Source: an uncultured Pseudomonadota bacterium (GTDB lineage Bacteria > Pseudomonadota > Alphaproteobacteria > JACZXZ01). From it: DNA of 64,000 nucleotides. The translations under genes were made by a program, and so were the position numbers. Each line of letters begins with the position of its first letter. The stretch's first letter is position 1. The stretch lies in NCBI GenBank assembly GCA_963749075.1, contig CAVVLJ010000021.1:640001-704000 (forward strand), read 5' to 3'. Shown in pieces: positions 7,789 through 19,932 of this stretch. A model generated the notes under the pieces. It was not told the DNA's origin. It made no database searches and saw only the letters and a program-made list of their open reading frames with translations.

Positions 7789-9819
7789 TCACTGCTTTCC
7801 GGCGAGCTTCCGCATGTAGCTCAGCAGATCGGCGTTCGCCGTCCCGTTGGCCGGCAGCCCGGTCTCGTGCTGGAATAGGCGGATGGCGGCGACCGTCCGC
7901 GGGTCCAGCCGGCCGCTGGCCGGGCCCGGGCTGTAGCCGAATCCGTCGAGCAGGCGCTGAATTTCGGCGATCTCCGGCGCGTTTTCGCCGGCGGCATGCG
8001 CAGGGGGTGCGGCGGCCGACGCCGGACGAGCGGCGGCGGGACGCGCCGCCGGCCGCCGGACCGGTGGCGCTTGCGCCGTGCGCGCTGCGGCGGCATGGGC
8101 GGGGGGCCTGGCGGCGGCGGCCCCCGGCACCTCGGCCGGCTTGGGCACGGGCTCGGGGAGCGCTGCCGCCTCCACCGCCGGCGCCGCGGGCGTCTTCGCA
8201 GCAGCCTGGACCGGGGGGTTTGCGGGCGGCGGTGCGGCGGAGGCCGCGCGGGTCTCGGCCGGCTTGGACGCGAGTTGCGCAGGCTGTGCCGGGGGCGTTG
8301 CGGCAGGCGCTCGGACCGCTGCGGCTGCGGCCGGCGCGGCTGCGGCCGGCGCGCGCGTCTCGGCCGGTTTCGCTTCGGACGGCGGAGCCGGCGTTGCCTG
8401 CGCCGAGGCTGCCGTCGGCGTTTCGGCAGTGCCTTGGGCGAGGGCGCTCGGCGGCGGCGGTGCTGCGGTGGCAGCGCTGGCCTCGGCCGGTTTGGGCGCG
8501 GGCGCGGGGAGCGGCAGCGCCTGCGCCGCGGGCGCCATCGCGGCTGCGGAAGCACCCTGCGCCGGGGCGCTCGCGGGCGGCGGTGCTGCGGCGGCCGCGC
8601 GAGTCTCGGCCGGCTTCGGAATGGGCAGCGGGAGCTGGTACGCTTCCGCGACGCTGGCCGCCGGCGGCGCCGCCGCGACTTGGGCCGCGACTTGGGCCGC
8701 GGCGCCGGCGGGCGGCCGTGCCGCGGGCGCGCCTGCCGCAGCCGGCGCTGCGGCCTGCGGCGGCTCGGGGGCTGCGGGCGCCGCGGCGCTCGCCTCCTTG
8801 CCGCGCCGCGGTGCCGCGGCATCCACCGCGGCTGCGGCGCCGATCTCGGCGCGCGACGCCGGCCGGATCTCGATCGACGCGGCCGCCGCCTCGTAGCGGC
8901 GGTCGCCCTCGGCGATCTCCGTAGCACTCAGCTTCGGCCTGAGCGACTTGAGATAGTCCGCCGCAGCCGGGACGTTGCCGCGCTCCGCGACGCGGAACCA
9001 TTTGTAGGCCTCGACGGCATCCGCAGCACCGCCGCGCCCGCTCTCGTAGAGCGTGCCGAGATTGAGCGCCGCGAGCGGGAGGCCGTCCTCCGCCGCCTTG
9101 GCGAACCACTTGCGCGCCTCGGCGTCGTTTTGCGCCACGCCCTTGCCTTCGGCATAGGCCGTGCCGAGGTTGTACTCGGCCGGCGGGTAGCGCTGCTGGG
9201 CGGCGCTCAGGTACCAAAGCAGCGCCAGGCGCGGCTCCTTCTCGACTCCCAAGCCCTTCTCGTAGAAGACGCCGAGGTTGTACTCGGCGGCCGCGAGGTT
9301 CTGCACCGCCGCCAGGCGCATCCAGTGCGCCGCCCCGCCGTAGTTCCGCGGCACCTCGCCGCCGATCACATAGAGCATGGCCAATTCGTACTGCGCGTCG
9401 GGGTCGCCCTTCTTGGCGCGCGCCTCGAGCTCCTTGAGCTTCCGCGCGGCGGCGCGCGGCGGCTCGGCGCTACCCGGCTGGGGTGCTGCTTGCGCCTGCG
9501 GCGTTGCCGCGGCCGGATCCTGAGGGGCCAGCAGCTGGCTGCCCGCCGCCTCGCTCGTGGCAATGAGGCCCCAGCCGATCTGAGAGAGAGCCGCGGCGAG
9601 CAAGAAGGCCCGCAGCAGCGCCCGCCTGCGGGCGGCCGGGCGCAGCCCTGCCGCCGTGCCAAGCGGCGCGTGCGCCTCGCCTTCGCCCCTCGCCGGAAGC
9701 GTGGGGGCAGCAGCCCGAGCCATCGACCCTCTCCAATGCATCGCCCCGATCATAGCAAGAATCGCGGCAGGCCTGTACGGTGTCGCAGCCCCGGGCCGCG
9801 GCCGTGCCGGCGCTGCCAT
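7789..9819 (-). CDS. Sel1-repeat protein with Ala/Pro-rich linker and C-terminal peptidoglycan-binding domain (PodJ-like architecture)
   Basis: AQYELAMLY / AEYNLGVFYEKG / AEYNLGTAY repeats; IQRLLDGFGYSPGPASGRLDPRTVAAIRLFQ; start uncertain. Confidence 0.8.
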   Translation of the reverse strand: MAAPARPRPGAATPYRPAAILAMIGAMHWRGSMARAAAPTLPARGEGEAHAPLGTAAGLRPAARRRALLRAFLLAAALSQIGWGLIATSEAAGSQLLAPQDPAAATPQAQAAPQPGSAEPPRAAARKLKELEARAKKGDPDAQYELAMLYVIGGEVPRNYGGAAHWMRLAAVQNLAAAEYNLGVFYEKGLGVEKEPRLALLWYLSAAQQRYPPAEYNLGTAYAEGKGVAQNDAEARKWFAKAAEDGLPLAALNLGTLYESGRGGAADAVEAYKWFRVAERGNVPAAADYLKSLRPKLSATEIAEGDRRYEAAAASIEIRPASRAEIGAAAAVDAAAPRRGKEASAAAPAAPEPPQAAAPAAAGAPAARPPAGAAAQVAAQVAAAPPAASVAEAYQLPLPIPKPAETRAAAAAPPPASAPAQGASAAAMAPAAQALPLPAPAPKPAEASAATAAPPPPSALAQGTAETPTAASAQATPAPPSEAKPAETRAPAAAAPAAAAAVRAPAATPPAQPAQLASKPAETRAASAAPPPANPPVQAAAKTPAAPAVEAAALPEPVPKPAEVPGAAAARPPAHAAAARTAQAPPVRRPAARPAAARPASAAAPPAHAAGENAPEIAEIQRLLDGFGYSPGPASGRLDPRTVAAIRLFQHETGLPANGTANADLLSYMRKLAGKQ

Positions 9820-9935: not shown

Positions 9936-10025
9936 GGAGGGGTGCCGGAGCGGTCGATCGGGGCGGTCTCGAAAACCGTTGTACCCGCAAGGGTACCGTG
10001 GGTTCGAATCCCACCCCCTCCGCCA
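9936..10025 (+). tRNA. tRNA-Ser(CGA)
   Basis: GGAGGGG/CCCCTCC acceptor stem, anticodon arm GCGGT-CTCGAAA-ACCGT, long variable arm, GGTTCGAATCC, encoded CCA; 90 nt. Confidence 0.97.
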
Positions 10026-10131
10026 AACCTACCGTTCGCAGTTGTTCGCAGGCGTCGGCGAACGTATTGAAAAATATCTTAATTTTCCAGTATTATCTGC
10101 TCGTAATCGTCCGTCCGCGTTCGCCCGAGAT

Positions 10132-10173
10132 TGTGGGTAAACGCGTTAGCGGCGTGGGTAGGGATGCGGGTAG
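10132..10173 (+). repeat. Putative integrase arm-type binding repeats (YGYGGGTAR)
   Basis: TGTGGGTAA 10132, CGTGGGTAG 10153, TGCGGGTAG 10165; similar CGCGGGTAA 16747 and TGCGGGAAC 16759 near the other att site. Confidence 0.55.
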
Positions 10174-10190
10174 AAATCGGTTAAGCGGAT

Positions 10191-11435
10191 ATGGCGCAAT
10201 TCATCGGTAGGCTCACCGCCCTCAAAGTTCTCAGGACGAAGAAGTCTGGCATGTACGCCGATGGCGCCGGCCTCTATCTGCAAGTGACGGGCGATGGCGA
10301 TGCGCATATAGCGAAATCTTGGATTTATCGATTCACGCTTCGCGGCAGAGCCCGCGAAATGGGGCTGGGCTCGCTTTCGACATACGGCTTGGCGGAAGCG
10401 CGCATCAAAGCCGCGGAGTGCCGACGGCTCACCTATGAGGGCATAGACCCAATCGATACGCGCAAAGCTGAGCGCGCCAAGGTCGCACTCGATGTCGCCA
10501 AAGCACTGACCTTCAAGGAATGTGCCGCGCAATACGTCACGGCGCATCGCGTCGGCTGGCGCAATTCCAAGCACGCGGCGCAATGGAATGCCACCATTAA
10601 AACCTACGCCGAACCTGTCATAGGTTTCCTGCCCGTCCAGACCATCGATACAGCTTTGGTAATGAAGATCATCGAGCCCCTTTGGTCGAAGAAACCGGAA
10701 ACAGCATCGCGACTACGCGGGCGAATCGAAGCCGTACTTGATTGGGCAACGGCGCGCGGTTACCGCGAGGGCGAGAATCCTGCGCGATGGCGCGGCCATC
10801 TCGACAAACTGCTCCCCGCGCGCGCCAAGCTGCGCAAGGTGAAGCACCATGCCGCCCTACCCTATGACGAGCTGCCCGAGTTCATGGCCACGTTGCGCAC
10901 TCATGACGGTGTTTCGGCCCGCGCACTTGAATTCCTGATCCTCACGGCGGCCCGCACGGGCGAGGTAATCGGCGCCCGCCCGGATGAGATCAAGGAGAGG
11001 GTTTGGGCGGTGCCGGCCGGGCGCATGAAGGGTGGCACGGAGCATCGCGTGCCATTGTCCGCGCCCGCCCTGGCAATCGTCGAGACGCTCCAGAAGGAGC
11101 CCACCGGCACGTTCCTATTCCCCGGCGGAAATCGCGACAAGCCGCTCAGCAACATGGCGATGCTGGCGCTACTTGAGCGCATGGGCCGCGCGGACCTGAC
11201 CGCTCACGGCTTCCGCTCGACGTTCCGCGATTGGGCGGCGGAGCGCACGAACTACCCGCGCGAAGTGGTCGAGATGGCGCTGGCGCATGCGATCGAGAAC
11301 AAGGTCGAGGCCGCCTATCGGCGCGGTGATTTGCTCGAAAAGCGCCGCTCGCTGATGGCCGAGTGGGCGAAGTTCTGTGCCCGCATCAAGCGCACGGGGG
11401 ATGGTCAGGTCGTGCCGATCCAGCGTCGCGGATAG
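10191..11435 (+). CDS. P4-like tyrosine integrase with arm-binding domain
   Basis: YADGAGLYLQV...AREMGLG N-terminus; catalytic TAARTGE, HGFRSTFRDW, LAH, AAYRR. Confidence 0.95.
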   Translation: MAQFIGRLTALKVLRTKKSGMYADGAGLYLQVTGDGDAHIAKSWIYRFTLRGRAREMGLGSLSTYGLAEARIKAAECRRLTYEGIDPIDTRKAERAKVALDVAKALTFKECAAQYVTAHRVGWRNSKHAAQWNATIKTYAEPVIGFLPVQTIDTALVMKIIEPLWSKKPETASRLRGRIEAVLDWATARGYREGENPARWRGHLDKLLPARAKLRKVKHHAALPYDELPEFMATLRTHDGVSARALEFLILTAARTGEVIGARPDEIKERVWAVPAGRMKGGTEHRVPLSAPALAIVETLQKEPTGTFLFPGGNRDKPLSNMAMLALLERMGRADLTAHGFRSTFRDWAAERTNYPREVVEMALAHAIENKVEAAYRRGDLLEKRRSLMAEWAKFCARIKRTGDGQVVPIQRRG

Positions 11436-11641
11436 ACGGCGCTTTCGATAACCGTTTTGGATCGCTGGCAGTTGCGGGGAGCCGCATTGGCCGAGACCGA
11501 CATTCGTTGAAGGCGGCAATCTAACCTAACCTCTAGCAATATCGCGGACGGCTACACATTCGAGGGGAACCGTGAATATCAATCACGCCCGTTGTCCATC
11601 CCTCAAGAATACCCCTGGCATCAAGGCGACAACACTGTGCG

Positions 11642-12439
11642 TCAGGATGCTAATGAAGCGCAGCTTGAGACTGAGCACCATTTCACCCCGAGTGCGGTAG
11701 CGCATTCGCTACACTCAGCAGCGAGCCATTCATATTTAGTGCGAACCTTTGGCCTGCCGATGTTCGCCGCAAGACCATCCTGGATCTGCTTATTTGCTGC
11801 TTTGAGGAAATCTGTAGCATCAGTCGGGACCGGGTCAGGTGACGGTATAATCTCGGTCCACGGAATAAAATTCGGCCCCCATTCTGGATTGAAAATATCG
11901 ATGAAGTGTTGTCCGTCGCGATCACGCTTTACCAACGATTTAAGATGAGGATGCGCGGACCCCTGCCCAAACTCGTCCAATCGAAACTCATGTTTCCAAT
12001 GCGCCATTGTCGCGTCGTCCAAAATGACACGCGGATAGATGGCAACAGATTGTTCCAGCCGATATGCGTCGACGAATGCCGGGCCGACCACGATCCGTTT
12101 GTGATGATAAAGTGACCCGACGGTGATCGCTCCCCTGCACGGGAAACCCAATAGTAAAAGATGTCGGCAAAGATATCCGATCTCTCTAACCATATAGAAC
12201 ACACGGTCGGCCTGCATCATGGAGAGAACGAAGGAGTCGGAGAAGAAACTGGCGGTCGCAAAGGGGAGCTTCTTCATGAACTGATCAAATAGTTTGTTGG
12301 TGCCAATCAGCTTGCTGATCTTGGCCCGCGCAGCTGGGTTCGCGTCACTCGCTTTCACAAGATCGGCAAAGCCCAGTACGTCGATAAAAGCAACCGCCCG
12401 CTCCTGGTAGTCGAAAGAGTTGGTATCGCTTGCGAGCAT
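11642..12439 (-). CDS. Divergent class III nucleotide cyclase-like protein
   Basis: AFIDVLGF, FSDS, RGAITVG, GPAFVDAYRLEQ motifs in cyclase order; SD GGAGGT before ATG. Confidence 0.65.
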   Translation of the reverse strand: MLASDTNSFDYQERAVAFIDVLGFADLVKASDANPAARAKISKLIGTNKLFDQFMKKLPFATASFFSDSFVLSMMQADRVFYMVREIGYLCRHLLLLGFPCRGAITVGSLYHHKRIVVGPAFVDAYRLEQSVAIYPRVILDDATMAHWKHEFRLDEFGQGSAHPHLKSLVKRDRDGQHFIDIFNPEWGPNFIPWTEIIPSPDPVPTDATDFLKAANKQIQDGLAANIGRPKVRTKYEWLAAECSECATALGVKWCSVSSCASLAS

Positions 12440-12531
12440 TCCCACCTCCCGGCGGTCGATTTCGCTACTTTAAGCAGCCTGGAGCACGATTTCGCCTAAT
12501 CTAATCCTATTCGACATTCCCCAGAAGCCAA

Positions 12532-13470
12532 TCATTTCGGCTTCCATTCGCGCGCAAGCCGCTGGGCCTCGGCAATCTCCTGTGGCGTCATCTTCGCCGC
12601 GATCATGTCGCGTGCCTTGACGGCATCATCACGATTTTCAGTCTCCGACGCTGGGAAGCGCATGGCAGCCAGATTAAGCCATTTGTGCGCCTGTATATAG
12701 TCTTGCCGCACCCCCTGGCCGTTGCGGTACATGACACCGAGGTTGTACTGCGCGTCGGCGTCTCCCTGGTCAGCAGCCTTGCCGAACCACTTCACGGCCT
12801 CCGCATAGTCCTGCGGCACGCCAGTGCCCTTATCGTACATGATCCCGAGGTTGTATTGGGCGATGACGACGCCCTGGTCGGCAGCCCTCCGGTACCACGT
12901 CGCCGCTTGCGCGTCGTCTTGTGGCACCCCGTCACCGTTCTGGTATTTGACTCCGAGGTTGGATTGGGCCGGAGCGTAACCCTGAACCGCGGCCTTGCGA
13001 TACCACGTCACCGCCTGTGCGTGGTCCTTCTCCACGCCTTCGCCGTAATCGTACATCACCCCAAGATGGCCTTGAGCCTGGGCCTGCCCCTGGTCGGCAG
13101 CCTTGCGATACCACTTCACCGCCTCAACCTGATCTTTCGGCACGCCACGGCCCGAGGCAAACATGTTTCCGAGGGCACTTTCAGCCCCAGCATGTCCCTG
13201 GTCGGCCGCCTTGCGGTACCACTTCGCCGCCTCGGCATCGTCCTGTGGGACGCCATGGCCACTCTCATACATAGTCCCAAGTATCAATTGTGCCGGGGCC
13301 GCACCCTGGGTTGCCAGTGGGCGGATAAGTTGAAGTTCTGTCGCGTAGTCCCCGCGTTGATCAGCCGCCTGAGCGGCGGACACATCCTCAGCCACGCTGG
13401 CCAGCACTGGACGGGCAAGGTTCACAGACAGAACAAGGGCCACAAGCCCGGCCTTAATCAAGCTATGCAT
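12532..13470 (-). CDS. Secreted Sel1-repeat protein
   Basis: Signal peptide; about six AxxxLGxMYxxGxGVxxDxxxAxxWYxKAA repeats. Confidence 0.92.
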   Translation of the reverse strand: MHSLIKAGLVALVLSVNLARPVLASVAEDVSAAQAADQRGDYATELQLIRPLATQGAAPAQLILGTMYESGHGVPQDDAEAAKWYRKAADQGHAGAESALGNMFASGRGVPKDQVEAVKWYRKAADQGQAQAQGHLGVMYDYGEGVEKDHAQAVTWYRKAAVQGYAPAQSNLGVKYQNGDGVPQDDAQAATWYRRAADQGVVIAQYNLGIMYDKGTGVPQDYAEAVKWFGKAADQGDADAQYNLGVMYRNGQGVRQDYIQAHKWLNLAAMRFPASETENRDDAVKARDMIAAKMTPQEIAEAQRLAREWKPK

Positions 13471-13553
13471 GGTTCATGCCCACGGCCAAGGTTCCATTGC
13501 TCATCAATATCCCGAGCGACCCTACACCTCGTACATCACTGAAAAATCGGATT

Positions 13554-14159
13554 TTACTGGCCTGCATGCTCCATGGCCGAGGCGGTTTTCGTGATGGTTT
13601 GGATCAAAGCGGCGTCTCGATCATCATGCGAAGCGACACCCGTACGTAGCTTTGGCAGAACACCTCGGGCGTACTTGCACGCCTCCAAAAGTGCCTCCGC
13701 GACCGCTGCAACCAGGCTAGGCTGGATATCGTCTGGCGTCCGATGGCGCATCAATCGACCTACCCCGTCACGCGCAATCTCAATGAGCCCATAGATGATG
13801 ACGACATCCATCGCATCACTTCCAAGAAGTCCAATTTTATGAGTATTGGCAGGATATACGATCGGGACAGGCATGCGCGACAAGCTCTCCACCGTACGGG
13901 CCGTGATCGGTCCATCGGCTTTGTTGACCAATCCTTGGAGCGATATATGCGCTCCGAAGGCTCCCGGGATTAGTTGACGGAGCTCGATCGCGAGTGACTT
14001 GCGAAGGGCCTCGATCTCTCGATCAACCTTCCGCTGCTCGATCCTTAATGTCACGCACACTGCGATGATCGCTGCAAGTAACGCTATCAAGCCGGCGAGA
14101 AGCGACTGCCAATGATCCAGGAGATCTATGATGGTTGTATAGTGCCACGGCGCGGCCAT
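13554..14159 (-). CDS. Hypothetical protein with N-terminal transmembrane helix
   Basis: WQSLLAGLIALLAAIIAVCVTL; SD GGAGGAGG. Confidence 0.7.
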   Translation of the reverse strand: MAAPWHYTTIIDLLDHWQSLLAGLIALLAAIIAVCVTLRIEQRKVDREIEALRKSLAIELRQLIPGAFGAHISLQGLVNKADGPITARTVESLSRMPVPIVYPANTHKIGLLGSDAMDVVIIYGLIEIARDGVGRLMRHRTPDDIQPSLVAAVAEALLEACKYARGVLPKLRTGVASHDDRDAALIQTITKTASAMEHAGQ

Positions 14160-14703
14160 TCCCTCCTCCAAACTCATCTATGCCATAGCTCCCACAGTGA
14201 GATTAGGCTATCTCGAGGCGCGGAAAGGTCGGCAAACGGATTGAAAACGGGCTTTCGATAGCGAATTTGAGGCCGAAGAAAGGCTTGGATTTTGCTCGAC
14301 TATGCAACCGAATACACTTGCAAATTGCAGCCCGAACGACCGAAAGCGTGCTCAACTTTGTGCAGCGGCACCGATGCCTCCTGCCGCTGCCAAGCCTATT
14401 TTGAGGTTTGATTCTGCATCCTGAAAGCCCCGAATTTCCGACTACAATCGCCCATTGGCGGAATTGCCATTTCTCGAACAGGGATCGTAGTAGAGCGTAG
14501 TACGGCGCAGCGACGACGAAGAAGAAAATGAGGGCAAGTTAAAAGAACGGCACCATCCGGTGCCCAAGTGCTTGTCTGCACATCGTTTTTCATGGCGCCA
14601 CCCTATCGAGCCGTGACGCCATAATACTGGTAAAGCACGATTTTGGCGCGTTTTCTTCGGCGCCACCGCAAAACTCCGGCCAGGGCCACAGAGCGGTGCC
14701 GCA

Positions 14704-14846
14704 TTGCCATTGGTGCCTTCAAGCAAGCGTGCCGGGCCGCGTCGGGCTGTCAAGCCCGCAGCCGCGCAAGGCGCGGTGCCCCGGGGGGCAGGCTTGACAG
14801 CCCGCCTCATGCGGCCCGGCATAGGCTTGCCAAGCACCAATGGCAA
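14704..14846. other. Long nested inverted repeat (branched hairpin)
   Basis: TTGCCATTGGTGC/GCACCAATGGCAA, GCCGGGCCGC/GCGGCCCGGC, CGGGCTGTCAAGCC/GGCTTGACAGCCCG, plus two small apical hairpins. Confidence 0.8.
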
Positions 14847-14930
14847 AATGGGCAGCGGGCTTCCGTCTCTATCAGACGGCGACTTCCCTTTCAGATGCAA
14901 AGCGCCGCCGGATGAGGTAAACTTCCGCCC

Positions 14931-15110
14931 ATGGCGACAAAGCGCAAGACGGACGCGGACGCCTCGGCGCTCGACCCGGCCTATGTGGCCGCGGTCGAAG
15001 AAGCGCGTGCCGAGGTCGATGCTGGCAAGACCGTTCCTTACGAGGAGGTCCGCCGATGGCTGCTATCGTGGGGCACTAAGAAGGAATTGCCGCGCCCGCG
15101 ATGCAAGTAA
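14931..15110 (+). CDS. Short antitoxin (partner of a RelE/ParE toxin), 59 aa, absent from the ORF track
   Basis: MATKRK...AVEEARAEVDAGKTVPYEEVRRWLLSWGTKKELPRPRCK; overlaps the toxin start. Confidence 0.85.
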   Translation: MATKRKTDADASALDPAYVAAVEEARAEVDAGKTVPYEEVRRWLLSWGTKKELPRPRCK

Positions 15111-15376
15111 GGTTCGCTGACGCGGCCCTCGCGGATATCGAAAGCATCCGAGCCTATATCGCACAAGACAACCCATCGGCCGCGAGCCGAACGGCCGTCG
15201 CGATCGTCGCGGCGACCGACCGCTTGGGCGCCAACCCGCGCCTAGGCCGCCTTGGTACGATGCCCGGCACCTTCGAGCTGATCGTCCGGCCCTATGTGCT
15301 CGTCTATGAGATTCACCGGGCCGAGATCATCGTGCTACGCGTCTGGCATGGACGGCAACGGCGCCCGGGAACCTGA
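15101..15376 (+). CDS. RelE/ParE family toxin
   Basis: FADAALADIESIRAYIAQDNPSAA...PRLGR...PYVLVY...VLRVWHGRQ. Confidence 0.9.
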   Translation: MQVRFADAALADIESIRAYIAQDNPSAASRTAVAIVAATDRLGANPRLGRLGTMPGTFELIVRPYVLVYEIHRAEIIVLRVWHGRQRRPGT

Positions 15377-15716
15377 TTGAGGTTCGCACGCCGCTCACGA
15401 CGGCGCCAGGCGCACCGGGAGCGAACGAATTCTACCGCGCTCAAAGCTCTCCCGAATACGAGCGACTGCGCTTCGACTGCCTTTGTTCATGCTCTACTAT
15501 CCTTAACCCGACGCACTCGGGAAATCGCCATTGACGGCGCACGATGCGAGGCCCAATTCCGATTCTCAACGGATATTTTCTTGGAGGAGGGTGGCGGTGA
15601 TTGGGGACGACAATATCCGGGCCGGCGATCCGCGACGAGATCGGCATTCCGGTGCCGCGGATGCATCAAGGAGAAATGATGCCCGTGGCACGCCAAGGAG
15701 GTCGCAGGAACAACTT

Positions 15717-15941
15717 CCGACAGACGCGGCGACCACCGCCATCCCTTTTGCACAACGCCTCGCCTGTACCGTCGCGGAGGCGTGCGAGGCCACGGGCCTA
15801 GGTCGAACGAAGCTTTACGAGCTGATCGGCGAAGGGTTGCTCGACACGACCATGATCGGGCGCCGCCGGTTGGTGCTGGTGCGTTCGCTTCGAGCGCTGC
15901 TGGAGGAGCACGACGCGCAGCGTCGACCGACGCCCCGTTGA
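15717..15941 (+). CDS. Excisionase-like helix-turn-helix protein; start unclear
   Basis: RLACTVAEACEATGLGRTKLYELIGEGLLDTTMIGRRRLV; the nearest SD-ATG (15677) is in another frame. Confidence 0.65.
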   Translation, partial: PTDAATTAIPFAQRLACTVAEACEATGLGRTKLYELIGEGLLDTTMIGRRRLVLVRSLRALLEEHDAQRRPTPR

Positions 15942-16011
15942 GCTCGCTGTGATTTTGGCACTTATCGCTCTGTCAGTGTATAGTCGGCGGGCAGGATCAA
16001 GGACGAGAGCG

Positions 16012-16302
16012 ATGCGGCCATCGGAAGCTGTTGCGCAACACCGCCAGGCACTTTTGGAGATGGCCCGCCGCTACGGCGTCTCGAATGTGCGGGTATTCGG
16101 GTCGGTTGCTCGCGGGGAAGATGGCGAGGGGAGCGATGTCGATCTGCTAGTCGATGCGCCCCGCGGAACGACCTATTTCACCTTGGCCCGCTTGCAGGAT
16201 GAAGCGGAACGCCTGACCGGTATCAGCGTCGATATCCATACTCCCGAAGGATTGAAGGCCCGTGTCCGCGCCGAAGTGCTGGCCGAGGCACGGCCGTTGT
16301 GA
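16012..16302 (+). CDS. MNT (minimal nucleotidyltransferase) antitoxin
   Basis: VFGSVARGEDGEGSDVDLLV (GSx10DxD). Confidence 0.9.
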   Translation: MRPSEAVAQHRQALLEMARRYGVSNVRVFGSVARGEDGEGSDVDLLVDAPRGTTYFTLARLQDEAERLTGISVDIHTPEGLKARVRAEVLAEARPL

Positions 16303-16682
16303 CCGGAAAAACAGGTAAGGAGCATCGCGCCAACGTCGACGAATGCCTGGACGAGATGCGGGCGAGTGCCGCGGCCATCGCGCGGTACATTGATGGGCTC
16401 AGCGAGGAGCGCTTCACCCAAGAGGAGATGCGACAGGATGCCGTCGTGCGGCGGCTGGAGATGATCGGCGAGGCGGCCGACCGTATCATGAAGGCGGATC
16501 CTGAATACGAGAAAAACCTGCCGGGCATAGCGCTTGTCGAAGCCAAGCGCATGCGAAATTTCGTGATCCATGGATACGATCAGGTCGACATCAGTGTCGT
16601 TTGGCACACGGCGAGGCATGACATTCCGAGCTTGCGGGCAGCGATCGAGAAGGTGCTATCCAGCCGTAGATTGAAAAGCTGA
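16299..16682 (+). CDS. HEPN (DUF86/HepT-like) RNase toxin
   Basis: DAVVRRLEMIGEAA, RNFVIHGY (Rx4HxY); GTGA overlap with MNT. Confidence 0.9.
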   Translation: MTGKTGKEHRANVDECLDEMRASAAAIARYIDGLSEERFTQEEMRQDAVVRRLEMIGEAADRIMKADPEYEKNLPGIALVEAKRMRNFVIHGYDQVDISVVWHTARHDIPSLRAAIEKVLSSRRLKS

Positions 16683-16806
16683 CCGCACCAGGGAGCCAAA
16701 TCGACCGCTGTCATCCGCACACACTCGCCAGAATCCGGCGCACCCGCGCGGGTAACGCTGCGGGAACAGCGAAGGCCATATACGGTACGTATTTGATAAT
16801 ATTGCG

Positions 16807-18447
16807 TTATTCAGCCTCGAAGGGCGGACACCCCCTCCGCCACTTCAGAACAGAACTGCGAACGCCGGGCGCAGCCGGCTTTACGCCGGCTGCGGCGGTC
16901 AGCGTCTGAAGCAAGTTGCTTTTCGAGCCGATGATGCGGACCTCGCGGTCGGCGACCTCGACGCGCTGGGCAAGCGCCCGAAGGTGGTCGCGGCGATAGC
17001 CGCCGCCGTCGATCCTGATCCGCTCGCGCGCCGTCCTGGCGAACCTCTGGACCATCTGCGGCGTGATCGCCTGCTGACCTGACGACTCCAGCATCGCGGC
17101 AGCACGCGCGGCGTCGGCTTGCGCCTGGTCGCGGATCGCCTTGAGGCTTGCGACGCGCTCCTTCAGCGCTGGGTCGTCGAGATCGGCAACGCCGGCCTCG
17201 ATGGCGTCGTAGAGCCGCTTGAGGCGCAGATCGGTCTCGGTTGCGCGCTTGTTCAACTCGACGATGTGCTCGCGGCGGCGGCCGGCGCGCTCCTGCCGGC
17301 TGTCCAGAACGGACGCCAGAATCTCCTCGAGCCGCTCCGGCTGGAGCAAACGGTCGGCGAGGTGCTCCGCTACAAGGGTGTCCAGCTTCTCCATCGGGAC
17401 CGAACGGCCCTTGCAGCCGGTCTCGCCCTGCCGCGCCTTGATCGAGCAGGTGTAGTAGCGATACCGCCCTCCCTTCCCGGTCCTGAGCGTCATGGCGCCG
17501 CCGCAGTCGGCGCAGAAGCAAATGCCGGTAAGGAGGGTGGGGCCGCTCACGACGCGCGCCGGCGTGACCTTCGGATTGCGGGCGCGGAGATGCGCCTGGA
17601 CCGCGTCGAATGTCGCCTGATCGATCAGCGGCGGCACCTCGACGGTGACGATCTCGCTGGCAGGCTTCAGCGTCTTATTCTTCGCGCGCTTGTTGAACTC
17701 GTGGCGGCCGACATAGGTCGTCCGCGTGAGGATGCGGTGCACTTGGCCGATGCCCCAGCGTCCGCCGTCGCGGGTGAAGATGCGATGTTGGTTGAGATAA
17801 ACCGCGATGTTCTTGACGCCCATCGGGCCGCTCGTCGCGTCGCCCTCCAAAGCCAGCCGATAGATCAGCCGGATCGTGTCGGCGTGCAGCGGATCGATTT
17901 CGAGCTTCTTCTTGACCTTGGCGCCGCGCTGCTCGGCCGCGACGACGCGGTAACCGATCGGCGGCAATGAGCCGTTCCAGAAGCCTTGCCGCGCGTTCTC
18001 TTTCAGCGCACGAAGAACATGCTTGGCGTTTTCCTTCGCTTGGTACTCGTCAAACAGCGCCATGATCTGCCGCATCATGACGTGCATCGGATCGTCACCC
18101 ATCTCCTGGGTAATCGAGACAAGCCGAACGCCATTCTTGGCGAGCTTGCGGACGTAGAACTCCAGCTCGAAGTGGTCGCGGAAGAACCGCGAGAAGCTGT
18201 GAACGATGACGATATCGAAGGGCGTGGGCTTGCTGGTGCCCGCTTCGATCATGCGCTGGAACTCGGGCCGGCGATCATTGGTGGCTGATGCGCCGGGTTC
18301 GACGTAGGTCTCGGCGAGCTGGTAACCGCGCGACTGGCAGTACGCCTCGCCTTGCCGCTTCTGATCCGGGATCGAGACATCATGCTCGGCTTGCCGCGCC
18401 GTCGAGACGCGCAAGTAAAGGGCGGCGCGCAACGGCACGGTCATCAC
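16807..18447 (-). CDS. Large serine recombinase whose 3' end crosses the att site
   Basis: ALYLRVST catalytic Ser, recombinase domain, CADCG...YYTC zinc ribbon, coiled coil; ends KWRRGCPPFEAE across the tRNA-derived repeat. Confidence 0.95.
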   Translation of the reverse strand: MMTVPLRAALYLRVSTARQAEHDVSIPDQKRQGEAYCQSRGYQLAETYVEPGASATNDRRPEFQRMIEAGTSKPTPFDIVIVHSFSRFFRDHFELEFYVRKLAKNGVRLVSITQEMGDDPMHVMMRQIMALFDEYQAKENAKHVLRALKENARQGFWNGSLPPIGYRVVAAEQRGAKVKKKLEIDPLHADTIRLIYRLALEGDATSGPMGVKNIAVYLNQHRIFTRDGGRWGIGQVHRILTRTTYVGRHEFNKRAKNKTLKPASEIVTVEVPPLIDQATFDAVQAHLRARNPKVTPARVVSGPTLLTGICFCADCGGAMTLRTGKGGRYRYYTCSIKARQGETGCKGRSVPMEKLDTLVAEHLADRLLQPERLEEILASVLDSRQERAGRRREHIVELNKRATETDLRLKRLYDAIEAGVADLDDPALKERVASLKAIRDQAQADAARAAAMLESSGQQAITPQMVQRFARTARERIRIDGGGYRRDHLRALAQRVEVADREVRIIGSKSNLLQTLTAAAGVKPAAPGVRSSVLKWRRGCPPFEAE

Positions 18448-18462
18448 GATTGTCCTCTCAGA

Positions 18463-18645
18463 TCATCGGCACGGCCCCAACAGCTCATCGAAGACATCGC
18501 CGAACCAAGCCTCGAACACGTCGAGCTCGGCATCGGTAATCGGCACGGCGTCAGGCCAATCGTCCGTGACGGTCCACGTCTCGAAGGTCATGCTTCGGCG
18601 GGCGCCCGATGCGGGGCCAGGGCTCGATCGGAATGTAAAGGTCAT
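18463..18645 (-). CDS. Small acidic hypothetical protein upstream of the recombinase (candidate directionality factor)
   Basis: WTVTDDWPDAVPITDAELDVFEAWFGDVFDELLG; ends 15 nt before the recombinase start. Confidence 0.6.
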   Translation of the reverse strand: MTFTFRSSPGPASGARRSMTFETWTVTDDWPDAVPITDAELDVFEAWFGDVFDELLGPCR

Positions 18646-18982
18646 CGGGCAAGATGCCCAGGCTGGCACGCGGGCGAGGCATCCCGACAGGATCGCGCCG
18701 AGCACTCCCAGGATGAACGGCCGATCTCTATCCCGCAGCATCCTTCCCCCTCCCGGCGGTCTCGCGGCGTAGATGGATGGCGGTTTCCACGTTGATATGA
18801 TTGACGTTTTTGTGAAAACGTATGGCACGGGTTTTCCGGCGGATGGCCGAAAAGCTAAATCATTCCAATCCACTGCGCGCGCCGGACGGCCTCGCTTTTC
18901 CCTTGCCGTCCCGACACCGCTTCGCCGAATATATCCGAAAACGCGAGCGCGCAGTTAGCCGGTTCGCCGCGGCGAGGAACCG

Positions 18983-19642
18983 ATGGGCAGAACGAAATTT
19001 GAGATCGAACATGTCCCGGGAGTGTCGGTCTCGACCGACGATATCTTATTGGATCTTCGCCGGGTGGCCGAATGCGCCGGCGCAAACGTCATCTCCGCAA
19101 GGCTGTATCAGCAATACGGAAAATATTCTTGGAGCACCGCCGCCAAGCGATTCGGCAGCTGGAATAAGGCCGTCATAGCGGCTGGGTTAGAAATAGCGAA
19201 TGAAATCAATGTCTCCGACGACCGCCTTTTCGAAAACCTGATGCGTCTCTGGGAACATTACGGTCGGCAGCCGCGCCGCCGCGAACTCGCCCATCCGCCT
19301 TCGCTGTTTTCTGAAGGCGCCTACCGCCGGCTTGGCTCATGGACGGATGCACTGAAGCAATTCGTCGCATACGCAAACGCGCAAGACATGGAGCCCCCGG
19401 CTCCGGGCGAAGCTTCAACCGGTCACAAAACAGGACGAGATCCATCCCTAAGACTCCGATTTCGCGTGATGAAGCGAGACAATTTCTCATGTCGTGCTTG
19501 CGGAGCAAGTCCCGCTTTGACGCTTGGCTTGTCGCTACACGTCGATCACGTCAAGGCGTGGAGTCTTGGCGGCGAGACAGTCGAAGAAAACCTGCAGACG
19601 CTGTGCGAGCCGTGCAACCTCGGCAAGAGCAACGTACTCTAA
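18983..19642 (+). CDS. HNH endonuclease with two N-terminal helical (homing-endonuclease-associated-like) repeats
   Basis: FGSWNKA / LGSWTDA repeats; CRACG...HVDHV...GG...NLQTLCEPCN. Confidence 0.88.
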   Translation: MGRTKFEIEHVPGVSVSTDDILLDLRRVAECAGANVISARLYQQYGKYSWSTAAKRFGSWNKAVIAAGLEIANEINVSDDRLFENLMRLWEHYGRQPRRRELAHPPSLFSEGAYRRLGSWTDALKQFVAYANAQDMEPPAPGEASTGHKTGRDPSLRLRFRVMKRDNFSCRACGASPALTLGLSLHVDHVKAWSLGGETVEENLQTLCEPCNLGKSNVL

Positions 19643-19658
19643 GCCCCGGCGACACAGT

Positions 19659-19712
19659 TCATAGGGCTATGGCGTAGACATAGTGCTCATCATCGTCGGT
19701 CGTGGCCCGCCA
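19659..19712 (-). other. Detached alternative 3' end of the serine recombinase gene
   Basis: TGG CGG GCC ACG ACC GAC GAT GAT GAG CAC TAT GTC TAC GCC ATA GCC CTA TGA = WRATTDDDEHYVYAIAL*, in frame with the recombinase W-R at the shared core. Confidence 0.7.
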
Positions 19713-19932
19713 CCCTTCGCCCTTGGGGCTACGGGTGGCATGCCGCTTATGAGATCGACGGGCGTGGGGAGACTGTCGCCGCGCATGCGGCGCGCCCAAA
19801 GACGGCGTTTGCTGCGCGAAGCCGCCCACATCTCGCCGCTTGACGCCCAAGACGTTCTTCGGTCAGTCTCGCCGGCCTCGGGGGGAAGCCTTCGAGCCGA
19901 ACGATTGAACATAGCAGCGCGGAGCAATGGAA

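Follow-up and report, generated by a model that had tools for sequence, protein, structure and literature searches.

What becomes of a recombinase whose gene contains the very site at which its element recombines? This question is raised by a locus in a stretch of 64,000 nucleotides (positions 640,001 to 704,000, forward strand, of contig CAVVLJ010000021.1, assembly GCA_963749075.1) from an uncultured alphaproteobacterium of the lineage JACZXZ01. The whole stretch is hereafter referred to as the window. At this locus, the open reading frame (ORF) of a large serine recombinase runs through the crossover core at one end of a small integrative element. An original prediction, made from the letters alone, held that the attachment site of the element, attP, lies inside the recombinase gene and that integration changes the C-terminus of the enzyme, removing a tail that resembles a degradation tag. 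Here, we followed up this proposal by comparing the locus with related genomes, metagenome contigs and database proteins. The element has exact ends, an empty site and a tRNA gene as its target; its design recurs across the family, its tail is conserved at the protein level, and joined forms occur naturally. The junctions, together with the conserved tail of the excised form, bear out the proposal that integration swaps the last 15 codons of the gene for junction sequence. The overall reading, a serine recombinase that has attP in its own last codons and exchanges a regulatory tail on integration, is given a probability of about 0.78.

Results

Ends and empty site of the element

The element is 2,870 bp long, comprises window 16844-19713, and is bounded by the 7-bp repeat CCGCCAC (Table 1). 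The claim that the same seven bases stand at both ends was verified, with both copies located exactly. As stand-alone evidence for an element the repeat was rejected, since its frequency is within what chance would give: the window has 32 copies where 21.2 ± 4.7 are expected, and a count of 32 was reached in 3 of 100 shuffles. The ends were instead read from contigs of four metagenome runs (X1 to X4; Logan contigs), placed on window 16600-19900. One X1 contig, with a depth of 13.8 and at least 94 letters on its shorter side, joins 16836 to 19707; 2870 bases are skipped and 7 letters fit both sides. A loose end in X1 also shows the 3' part of a tRNA directly before 19707. This joint and the junctions of the relatives set the size of the element and place its ends where they had been proposed, at 16.8 and 19.7 kb.

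Two genomes of the same genus support this description. In G005, a recombinase gene with 84% DNA identity abuts an intact tRNA-Ser gene, with an identical junction and no island between them. In G001, the end of tRNA-Ser is followed by sequence that matches window 19714-19723 at 9 of 10 positions, as in an empty site. The element is therefore discrete, with left and right junctions (attL and attR) and an exact empty site, as seen from the X1 joint and from both genomes. It is possible that the empty form stems from excision out of a tandem array, or from a site that was never occupied. The host attachment site, attB, lies at the extreme 3' end of the tRNA gene and consists of the last two bases of the acceptor stem, the discriminator G and the encoded CCA. 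On the right flank, homology with G003 and G004 resumes at 19827. Synteny of this flank was tried as a guide and was uninformative, the flank gene standing in another context in G003 and G004, with no tRNA near.

Table 1 Coordinates of the features described in the window.
Feature	Position	Strand	Evidence or remark
tRNA-Ser (anticodon CGA)	9936-10025	+	ARAGORN; original target of both elements
P4-type tyrosine-integrase island	10026-16828		Pfam; drop in G+C; tRNA-Ser and integrase homologue in G003
Large serine recombinase ORF, 546 aa, integrated state	16807-18447	-	ORF and Pfam
14-nt direct repeat of the tRNA-Ser 3' end	16829-16842	+	Exact copy of 10012-10025 (14-mer search)
Left core copy, CCGCCAC	16837-16843		Junction on the recombinase/tRNA side
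Small companion gene (72 aa in intact copies such as that of L038)	18463-18682	-	tblastn, alignment
Cargo HNH endonuclease with homing-endonuclease-associated repeats	18983-19642	+	Pfam PF18780, PF01844
Tail block, 17 codons and stop, WRATTDDDEHYVYAIAL	19712-19659	-	Translation, stop at 19661-19659; homologues
Right core copy, CCGCCAC	19707-19713		Within the 12-nt near-palindrome GTGGC-CC-GCCAC, 19702-19713
Right half of attB, native sequence downstream of tRNA-Ser	19714-19830		Comparison with G001 and G003/G004; X1 contig

The recombinase and the other genes of the element

The recombinase is composed of a Resolvase domain (PF00239, residues 8-155, E-value 3.6e-30), a Recombinase domain (PF07508, 188-290) and a zinc ribbon (Zn_ribbon_recom, PF13408, 305-363), and Pfam gives it no match to the Phage_integrase domain. 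Long helices are found at 369-416 and 425-453, where a coiled coil is expected, in the weak AlphaFold2 model of a homologue, P0124. The best NCBIfam match is CcrB, whose score of 144.8 bits against a cut-off of 900 leaves the protein outside that equivalog. Translation confirmed that the ORF reads through the core as W-R: the protein ends in SSVLKWRRGCPPFEAE, with W encoded by 16842-16840 and R by 16839-16837. The sequence conserved among homologues stops at KWR, residue 537, and the integrated state keeps all three domains and 537 of the 546 residues in one ORF.

The original prediction gave the element three genes, and three were found: besides the recombinase gene, there is a small conserved one and one for an HNH nuclease. 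The small companion gene lies directly upstream of the recombinase and is present in 155 of 167 loci (tblastn). Its product, with the core GRPPKHDLSxWTVTDDWPExVPVTxAEVDVFEAWFGDLFDELFGP, has no Pfam or NCBIfam match, and the Atlas gives only unnamed clusters. It is the foremost candidate for a factor of directionality or regulation. Compared with L038, L059 and L073, the window copy carries a single additional base near 18584, a +1 frameshift that divides the gene between two frames and is masked by a 136-aa ORF in the other frame. A complex prediction of the companion protein with the C-terminal 48 residues of P0124 scored 0.00 and was counted neither way.

A conserved tail at the far end of the element

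At the far end, the frame of the recombinase continues from 19712 through the tail block to its stop, as had been predicted. Only circularisation brings the block into frame with the recombinase, and the 15 codons past the core then read ATTDDDEHYVYAIAL. In related elements, its DNA is 90-100% identical (blastn); the identity sets in precisely at the core, and the flanking sequences show no relationship. The original prediction had proposed a search for the distal tail among homologues. It recurs there: a profile search gave 52 matches, with at least one block in 43 of 158 recombinase loci, and its pattern is kept in divergent tails.

There are 47 unique blocks, and none of them contains an insertion or deletion. 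Read in frame, 38 blocks first stop at codon 18 (TGA in 25, TAA in 9, TAG in 4), 6 at codon 19 and 1 at codon 20, and 2 are still open at codon 21; in 7 blocks, AIAL is extended by 1-2 residues. In codons 3-17, differences from the consensus number 46, 37 and 84 at the first, second and third codon positions, respectively, with those at first and second positions clustered at codons 4-5. Tyr11 and Ala14 are invariant despite 9 and 19 synonymous variants. After the stop, conservation collapses. An ORF that enters from the host flank does not account for the frame: within the 22 codons upstream, 27 of 48 blocks are interrupted by an in-frame stop.

Further copies of the block were noticed elsewhere. 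Contig C17 of genome G000 holds, at 631878-631920, a second, degenerate block with internal deletions and without a recombinase. A tRNA-Ser (GCT) gene is found some 700 nt away, and the block appears to be left over from an earlier element. The flank on its host side is partly palindromic, includes the GCCA end of the tRNA, and is similar both to window 19714-19745 and to the sequence that follows tRNA-Ser in G001. In runs X2 to X4 the depth rises sharply at 19597-19707 (in X3, 668 against 0 and 25 in the neighbouring bins), and contig ends hang loose at 19659/19663 and at 19712/19715. Many unrelated contigs from wetland, peat and wastewater metagenomes have the tail block alone in common.

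The same design at tRNA genes across the family

The family is abundant: of 8,000 scored candidates, 2,412 proteins reach E <= 1e-20. In a set with one genome per species, 553 of 597 candidate stretches encode relatives, of which the best 80 were taken; these are 77-96% identical and spread over many alphaproteobacterial families, with isolates of Breoghania, Aureimonas and Xanthobacter among the carriers. One was left out, since its best match was on the other strand, so that 79 genome loci were counted. A second set of 80 metagenome loci was likewise reduced to 79, one locus having no C-terminal match.

In 61 of the 79 genome loci, the recombinase gene runs at its 3' end about 12 nt into a convergent tRNA gene. 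Of these tRNAs, 55 are for Ser (with every one of the four kinds of anticodon represented), 4 for Glu and 2 for Arg. Among the 18 genome loci that lack one are some at the end of a contig and some in which another island has been inserted. The overlap is seen in 57 of the 79 metagenome loci, giving 118 of 158 for both sets. The conserved protein always ends in KWR and is followed by antisense tRNA sequence (xGWDSNPR...) for 0 to more than 300 residues. The crossover lies within the integrase ORF, and the integrated and excised forms differ at the C-terminus.

Pairs of element and tail block define the core more closely. The two junctions share exactly 6 nt (TGGCGG in the sense of the recombinase) in 29 of 41 pairs. 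The sixth base is G at tRNA-Ser elements and T at 4 of 5 tRNA-Glu pairs; in the fifth such pair, L064, the base at the recombinase junction is C and the shared core is limited to 5 nt. Such a pattern is expected if the crossover includes this base.

Divergent elements and naturally joined forms

Divergent elements of the TQGLKWR type, 11-22 kb long and with relaxase-like cargo, retain the tail as protein, with WRAATDSDDYYVYAIALQ in G045, WRAATDSDDHYAYAIALQNDA in G044 and WRATTDEDEHYVYAIAL in G043. These tails were not easily found. A degenerate pattern search gave a match in 1 of 5 genomes of this type, and BLAST with a 69-nt natural block gave one convincing match in 4 genomes and missed the block of G044, which was later found by profile. 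Searching within 7 kb (regular expressions, clustering) returned only cargo genes of the relaxase region; the far ends lie 11-22 kb away. A conserved region encoding a MobA/MobL-like relaxase is located 2-5 kb upstream of the TQGLKWR-type recombinases (L076-L104), from which these enzymes appear to serve mobilisable or conjugative elements of 11-22 kb.

In G043 (L109/L110, C1:897500-920000), an intact recombinase gene stands at tRNA-Ser (GGA), with three tail blocks stacked upstream of it. A 3' remnant of a recombinase gene comes before each of the blocks, and one block is fused to its remnant in frame, ending in VPTRGGKWRATTDSDDHYVYAIAT and a stop. This stack suggests that each new element is inserted at the tRNA-proximal junction of the one already present, with older copies decaying outward. 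Two to three blocks are also found in L062, L158, L169 and L189.

When the natural joined piece of G043 was used as the query, 6 of the 120 listed database proteins ended in the tail. Two of the tailed proteins are full-length recombinases, P0123 (554 aa, on a contig of 2,946 nt) and P0124 (547 aa). Their source may be a circle or a tandem array; the exact contig of P0124 was not found among the metagenome contigs, in which the best match was 90%. In the AlphaFold2 model of P0124, which is weak overall (mean predicted local distance difference test score, pLDDT, 60.3), residues 518-547 are coil, with a pLDDT below 50 at 518-536 and 538-547. A disordered end of this kind, as modelled, fits a linear motif on a flexible linker.

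The tRNA-Ser target and the neighbouring island

In the window itself, the recombinase gene no longer stands next to the tRNA gene. The last 14 nt of tRNA-Ser recur at the left junction (Table 1), where their antisense strand encodes residues W-R-R-G and part of the C codon, so the left core is the tip of a tRNA-Ser remnant. The original prediction had mentioned neither the tRNA target nor the neighbouring island. Most simply, this copy is a displaced remnant, left when a tyrosine-integrase island inserted later between the tRNA and the element; the reverse order of arrival is also allowed. The G+C content drops from about 0.70 to 0.52-0.66 across 10.0-19.8 kb. A single island from the tRNA to 19.8 kb, as this drop might suggest, was rejected on account of the repeat at 16829 and of the relatives, which together point to two elements in tandem. 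In G003, the tRNA is followed by a homologue of the window tyrosine integrase. Some homologues of the recombinase end in WRxGCPP, so the tandem arrangement of island and recombinase recurs in other genomes.

The island measures 6.8 kb, plus its 14-nt repeat, and sits in the 3' end of tRNA-Ser. Its integrase gene (10191-11435), which adjoins the tRNA, has Arm-DNA-bind_3, Phage_int_M and Phage_integrase domains (Pfam). The island sets the present C-terminus of the recombinase, yet it is outside the finding proper. Its cargo includes a Sel1-repeat protein (12532-13470), a RelE/ParE-like pair (14931-15376), an HTH_17 gene (15531-15941) and an MNT/HepT nucleotidyltransferase-RNase pair (15949-16682); two ORFs, 11642-12445 and 13554-14177, have no Pfam match. 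Just upstream of the tRNA, a 676-aa ORF rich in Ala and Pro (7789-9819) has a Sel1-like middle part, a G+C content of up to 0.81, and repeats with a period of 105-135 nt at 8060-8753.

Discussion

The proposed cycle can be described as follows. The recombinase would recombine attP, in its own final codons, with attB at the tRNA gene's 3' end. In the circle, the ORF would pass from KWR straight into the 15 codons brought from the far end of the element, and then to a stop. After integration, these codons sit 2.9 kb away and the ORF reads antisense tRNA in their place. In the window, it reads the 14-nt tRNA remnant and then the end of the later-arrived P4-type island, giving RGCPPFEAE and a stop. 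The catalytic and DNA-binding domains all stay intact, only the tail being exchanged. The tail would be a flexible peptide with a regulatory role confined to enzyme that is made from the excised element, tuning its activity, partners or lifetime, by analogy with the Mx8 integrase IntP, which is altered by integration.

Several readings of the same data were weighed. That a chance 7-bp repeat and an overrunning ORF mimic an element, with no discrete 2.9-kb unit, has hardly any probability left: the heptamer is indeed common in the window, with 32 copies against 21 expected, but the exact empty-site contig, the same junction at the intact tRNA of G005 and the family-wide design all oppose this reading, and it is refuted by the empty-site contig and the recurrence of the tail block in related loci. 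It is improbable, too, that the 54-nt block serves as DNA only, as an outer arm of attP and perhaps a site for the companion protein, its frame and stop being incidental and the recombinase the same in both states. Some constraint on the DNA is plain. The first 25 nt or so must be a recombinase half-site, a 12-nt near-palindrome surrounds the centre, and the identity of the block in blastn matches exceeds that of the recombinase gene. The usual half-site of a serine integrase is roughly half of 54 nt, however, and here conservation extends to about 54 nt from the centre, roughly twice that length. The conserved stretch ends at the stop, whose position is kept while its identity varies between TGA, TAA and TAG. 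Moreover, the blocks have no indels, third-position changes dominate (84 against 46 and 37), those at first and second positions cluster at codons 4-5, and tails that differ at many DNA positions still preserve the pattern of amino acids.

If the tail acts as protein, its role has still to be chosen. The original prediction saw in it an ssrA-like degron for ClpXP (or ClpAP/Lon), by which recombinase made from the circle would be short-lived and that made from the integrated copy stable; such a proteolysis tag is, in our judgement, unlikely. It would suit the order of an acidic stretch, a Tyr and an Ala/aliphatic C-terminus, which is loosely like the host transfer-messenger RNA tag ANDNYAEARLAA, the reading of some divergent tails as DENYVYAIAL or ETENYTYAIAL, and the disorder predicted in the weak P0124 model. 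The likeness to DDDEHYVYAIAL is loose and in character only (acidic residues, a Tyr, an Ala-rich end). Recognition of ssrA by ClpX needs the terminal LAA carboxylate, and the tail ends in A-L, not A-A. Only in 38 of the 47 unique blocks does the stop come directly after the AIAL-type end, so the motif is not at a free C-terminus in all members; 7 blocks have 1-2 extra residues, 2 have no stop by codon 21, and further tails end in ALQ, ALQNDA or ALQSGG. Such residues past AIAL fit poorly with a tag that is read at a free C-terminus. Nor does the tail co-vary with the host across many alphaproteobacterial families, and a degron in the excised state looks costly for elements of 2.6-2.9 kb that carry no replication or transfer genes. 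Because of the Mx8 precedent, the extra residues and this cost, a motif that alters activity or binds a partner is favoured over a tag, tentatively and at somewhat less than even odds; the probability left by these two goes to other roles. A device of directionality or commitment is a more doubtful proposal: tailed enzyme made from the circle, possibly short-lived or bound to a partner, would be competent for integration, and enzyme from the integrated copy, whose ORF reads into the convergent tRNA gene, would be tail-less and a different catalyst, inert or prone to excision.

A number of observations weigh against the regulated exchange of the tail that we propose. No circle junction of the window element itself was seen among the Logan contigs of the four runs; the sole joint that goes back, from 19691 to 17317 in one X2 contig (41 letters on the shorter side, 85% likeness), comes from another organism and maps uncleanly. 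The full-length joined form was absent from the 120 best homologues of the window protein and from the 158 loci. The frameshift in the companion gene suggests that the window copy of the element may be decaying. By the profile search, 115 of the 158 loci have no tail block; 47 of these have less than 3 kb of upstream sequence and most others are large elements. The G005 element shows no block within 4.4 kb of sequence; no profile match fell in L021. Of the four divergent-type genomes followed outward (the five less G041), three have the block, and in G042 the contig ends after 9.4 kb without one. When distinct single-base variant codons are counted once, 8 synonymous and 26 non-synonymous variants stand against 31:104 by chance, a near-chance ratio that also suits a role as DNA only. 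The block sequences are, besides, mutually related and not independent. Lastly, as the DNA of the block is more conserved than the gene, part of the constraint is surely that of an attP half-site.

Integrase genes that extend across their attachment sites are known already. The closest precedent, which the original prediction did not name, is IntP/IntX of the Myxococcus phage Mx8, in which attP is described as lying within the integrase coding sequence, so that integration yields a recombinant gene with a new 3' end and an enzyme whose behaviour is changed, not inactivated (PMC6070905). The authors of Islander also mention Mx8 and SSV integrases as extending across attP (PMC4383910). In both Mx8 and the window, the integrase gene spans attP and its C-terminus is altered on integration; IntP, however, is a tyrosine recombinase, whereas the window enzyme belongs to the large serine recombinases, has a core of 6 bp and shares its design with a very large family. 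By analogy, the window recombinase would work like IntP without being its relative. In the integration-dependent immunity of mycobacteriophages of the BPs type (clusters G, I, N and P), on which the degron reading is modelled, the cited account places attP in the repressor gene, from whose product integration removes an ssrA-like C-terminal tag (PMC4557955). There, too, attP is inside an ORF and integration takes off a C-terminal peptide, with a change in the fate of the protein. As far as that account goes, the split gene is the repressor and the tyrosine integrase has its own fixed tag; in contrast, the window recombinase edits its own gene, and its degron is putative. The suicidal integrases of the SSV1 type also have their attachment site within the integrase gene, in a compact int-att module that targets tRNA genes, and are termed exclusively archaeal in the text cited (PMC8371274). 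These tyrosine recombinases are split into inactive parts, whereas the window element exchanges only the last 15 codons and keeps one ORF, with no division into non-functional parts.

Among serine recombinases, those of phiC31, Bxb1, A118, SPbeta (SprA) and CcrB resemble the window system in domain architecture, short core, small element-encoded partner gene and separate attP and attB. To our knowledge, the characterised large serine integrases have attP outside the int ORF, unlike the window recombinase, and mostly target protein-coding genes. A statement of 2014, in the passage cited, was that tRNA genes are not known targets of serine-family integrases (PMC4383910). No serine recombinase that spans its own attP or targets tRNA 3' ends was found in the literature, where the att-site tables in the supplements of surveys may hold cases. 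What is apparently undescribed, then, is such an arrangement in a large clade of serine integrases that target tRNA genes.

Serine integrases are main tools for unidirectional DNA insertion, and the control of their direction and dosage is a central question. The element described here is a compact natural module of a recombinase, a 72-aa partner and a 54-nt tail block, which targets the near-universal 3' end of tRNA genes and in which the state of integration is written into the C-terminus of the enzyme. For annotation, the tail block offers a precise marker for the far ends of islands and for stacked remnants at tRNA genes. If the tail is indeed a device of directionality or commitment, a two-gene module would toggle itself by editing its own recombinase gene, and the same would hold in general for a large, undescribed class of serine integrases at tRNA genes.

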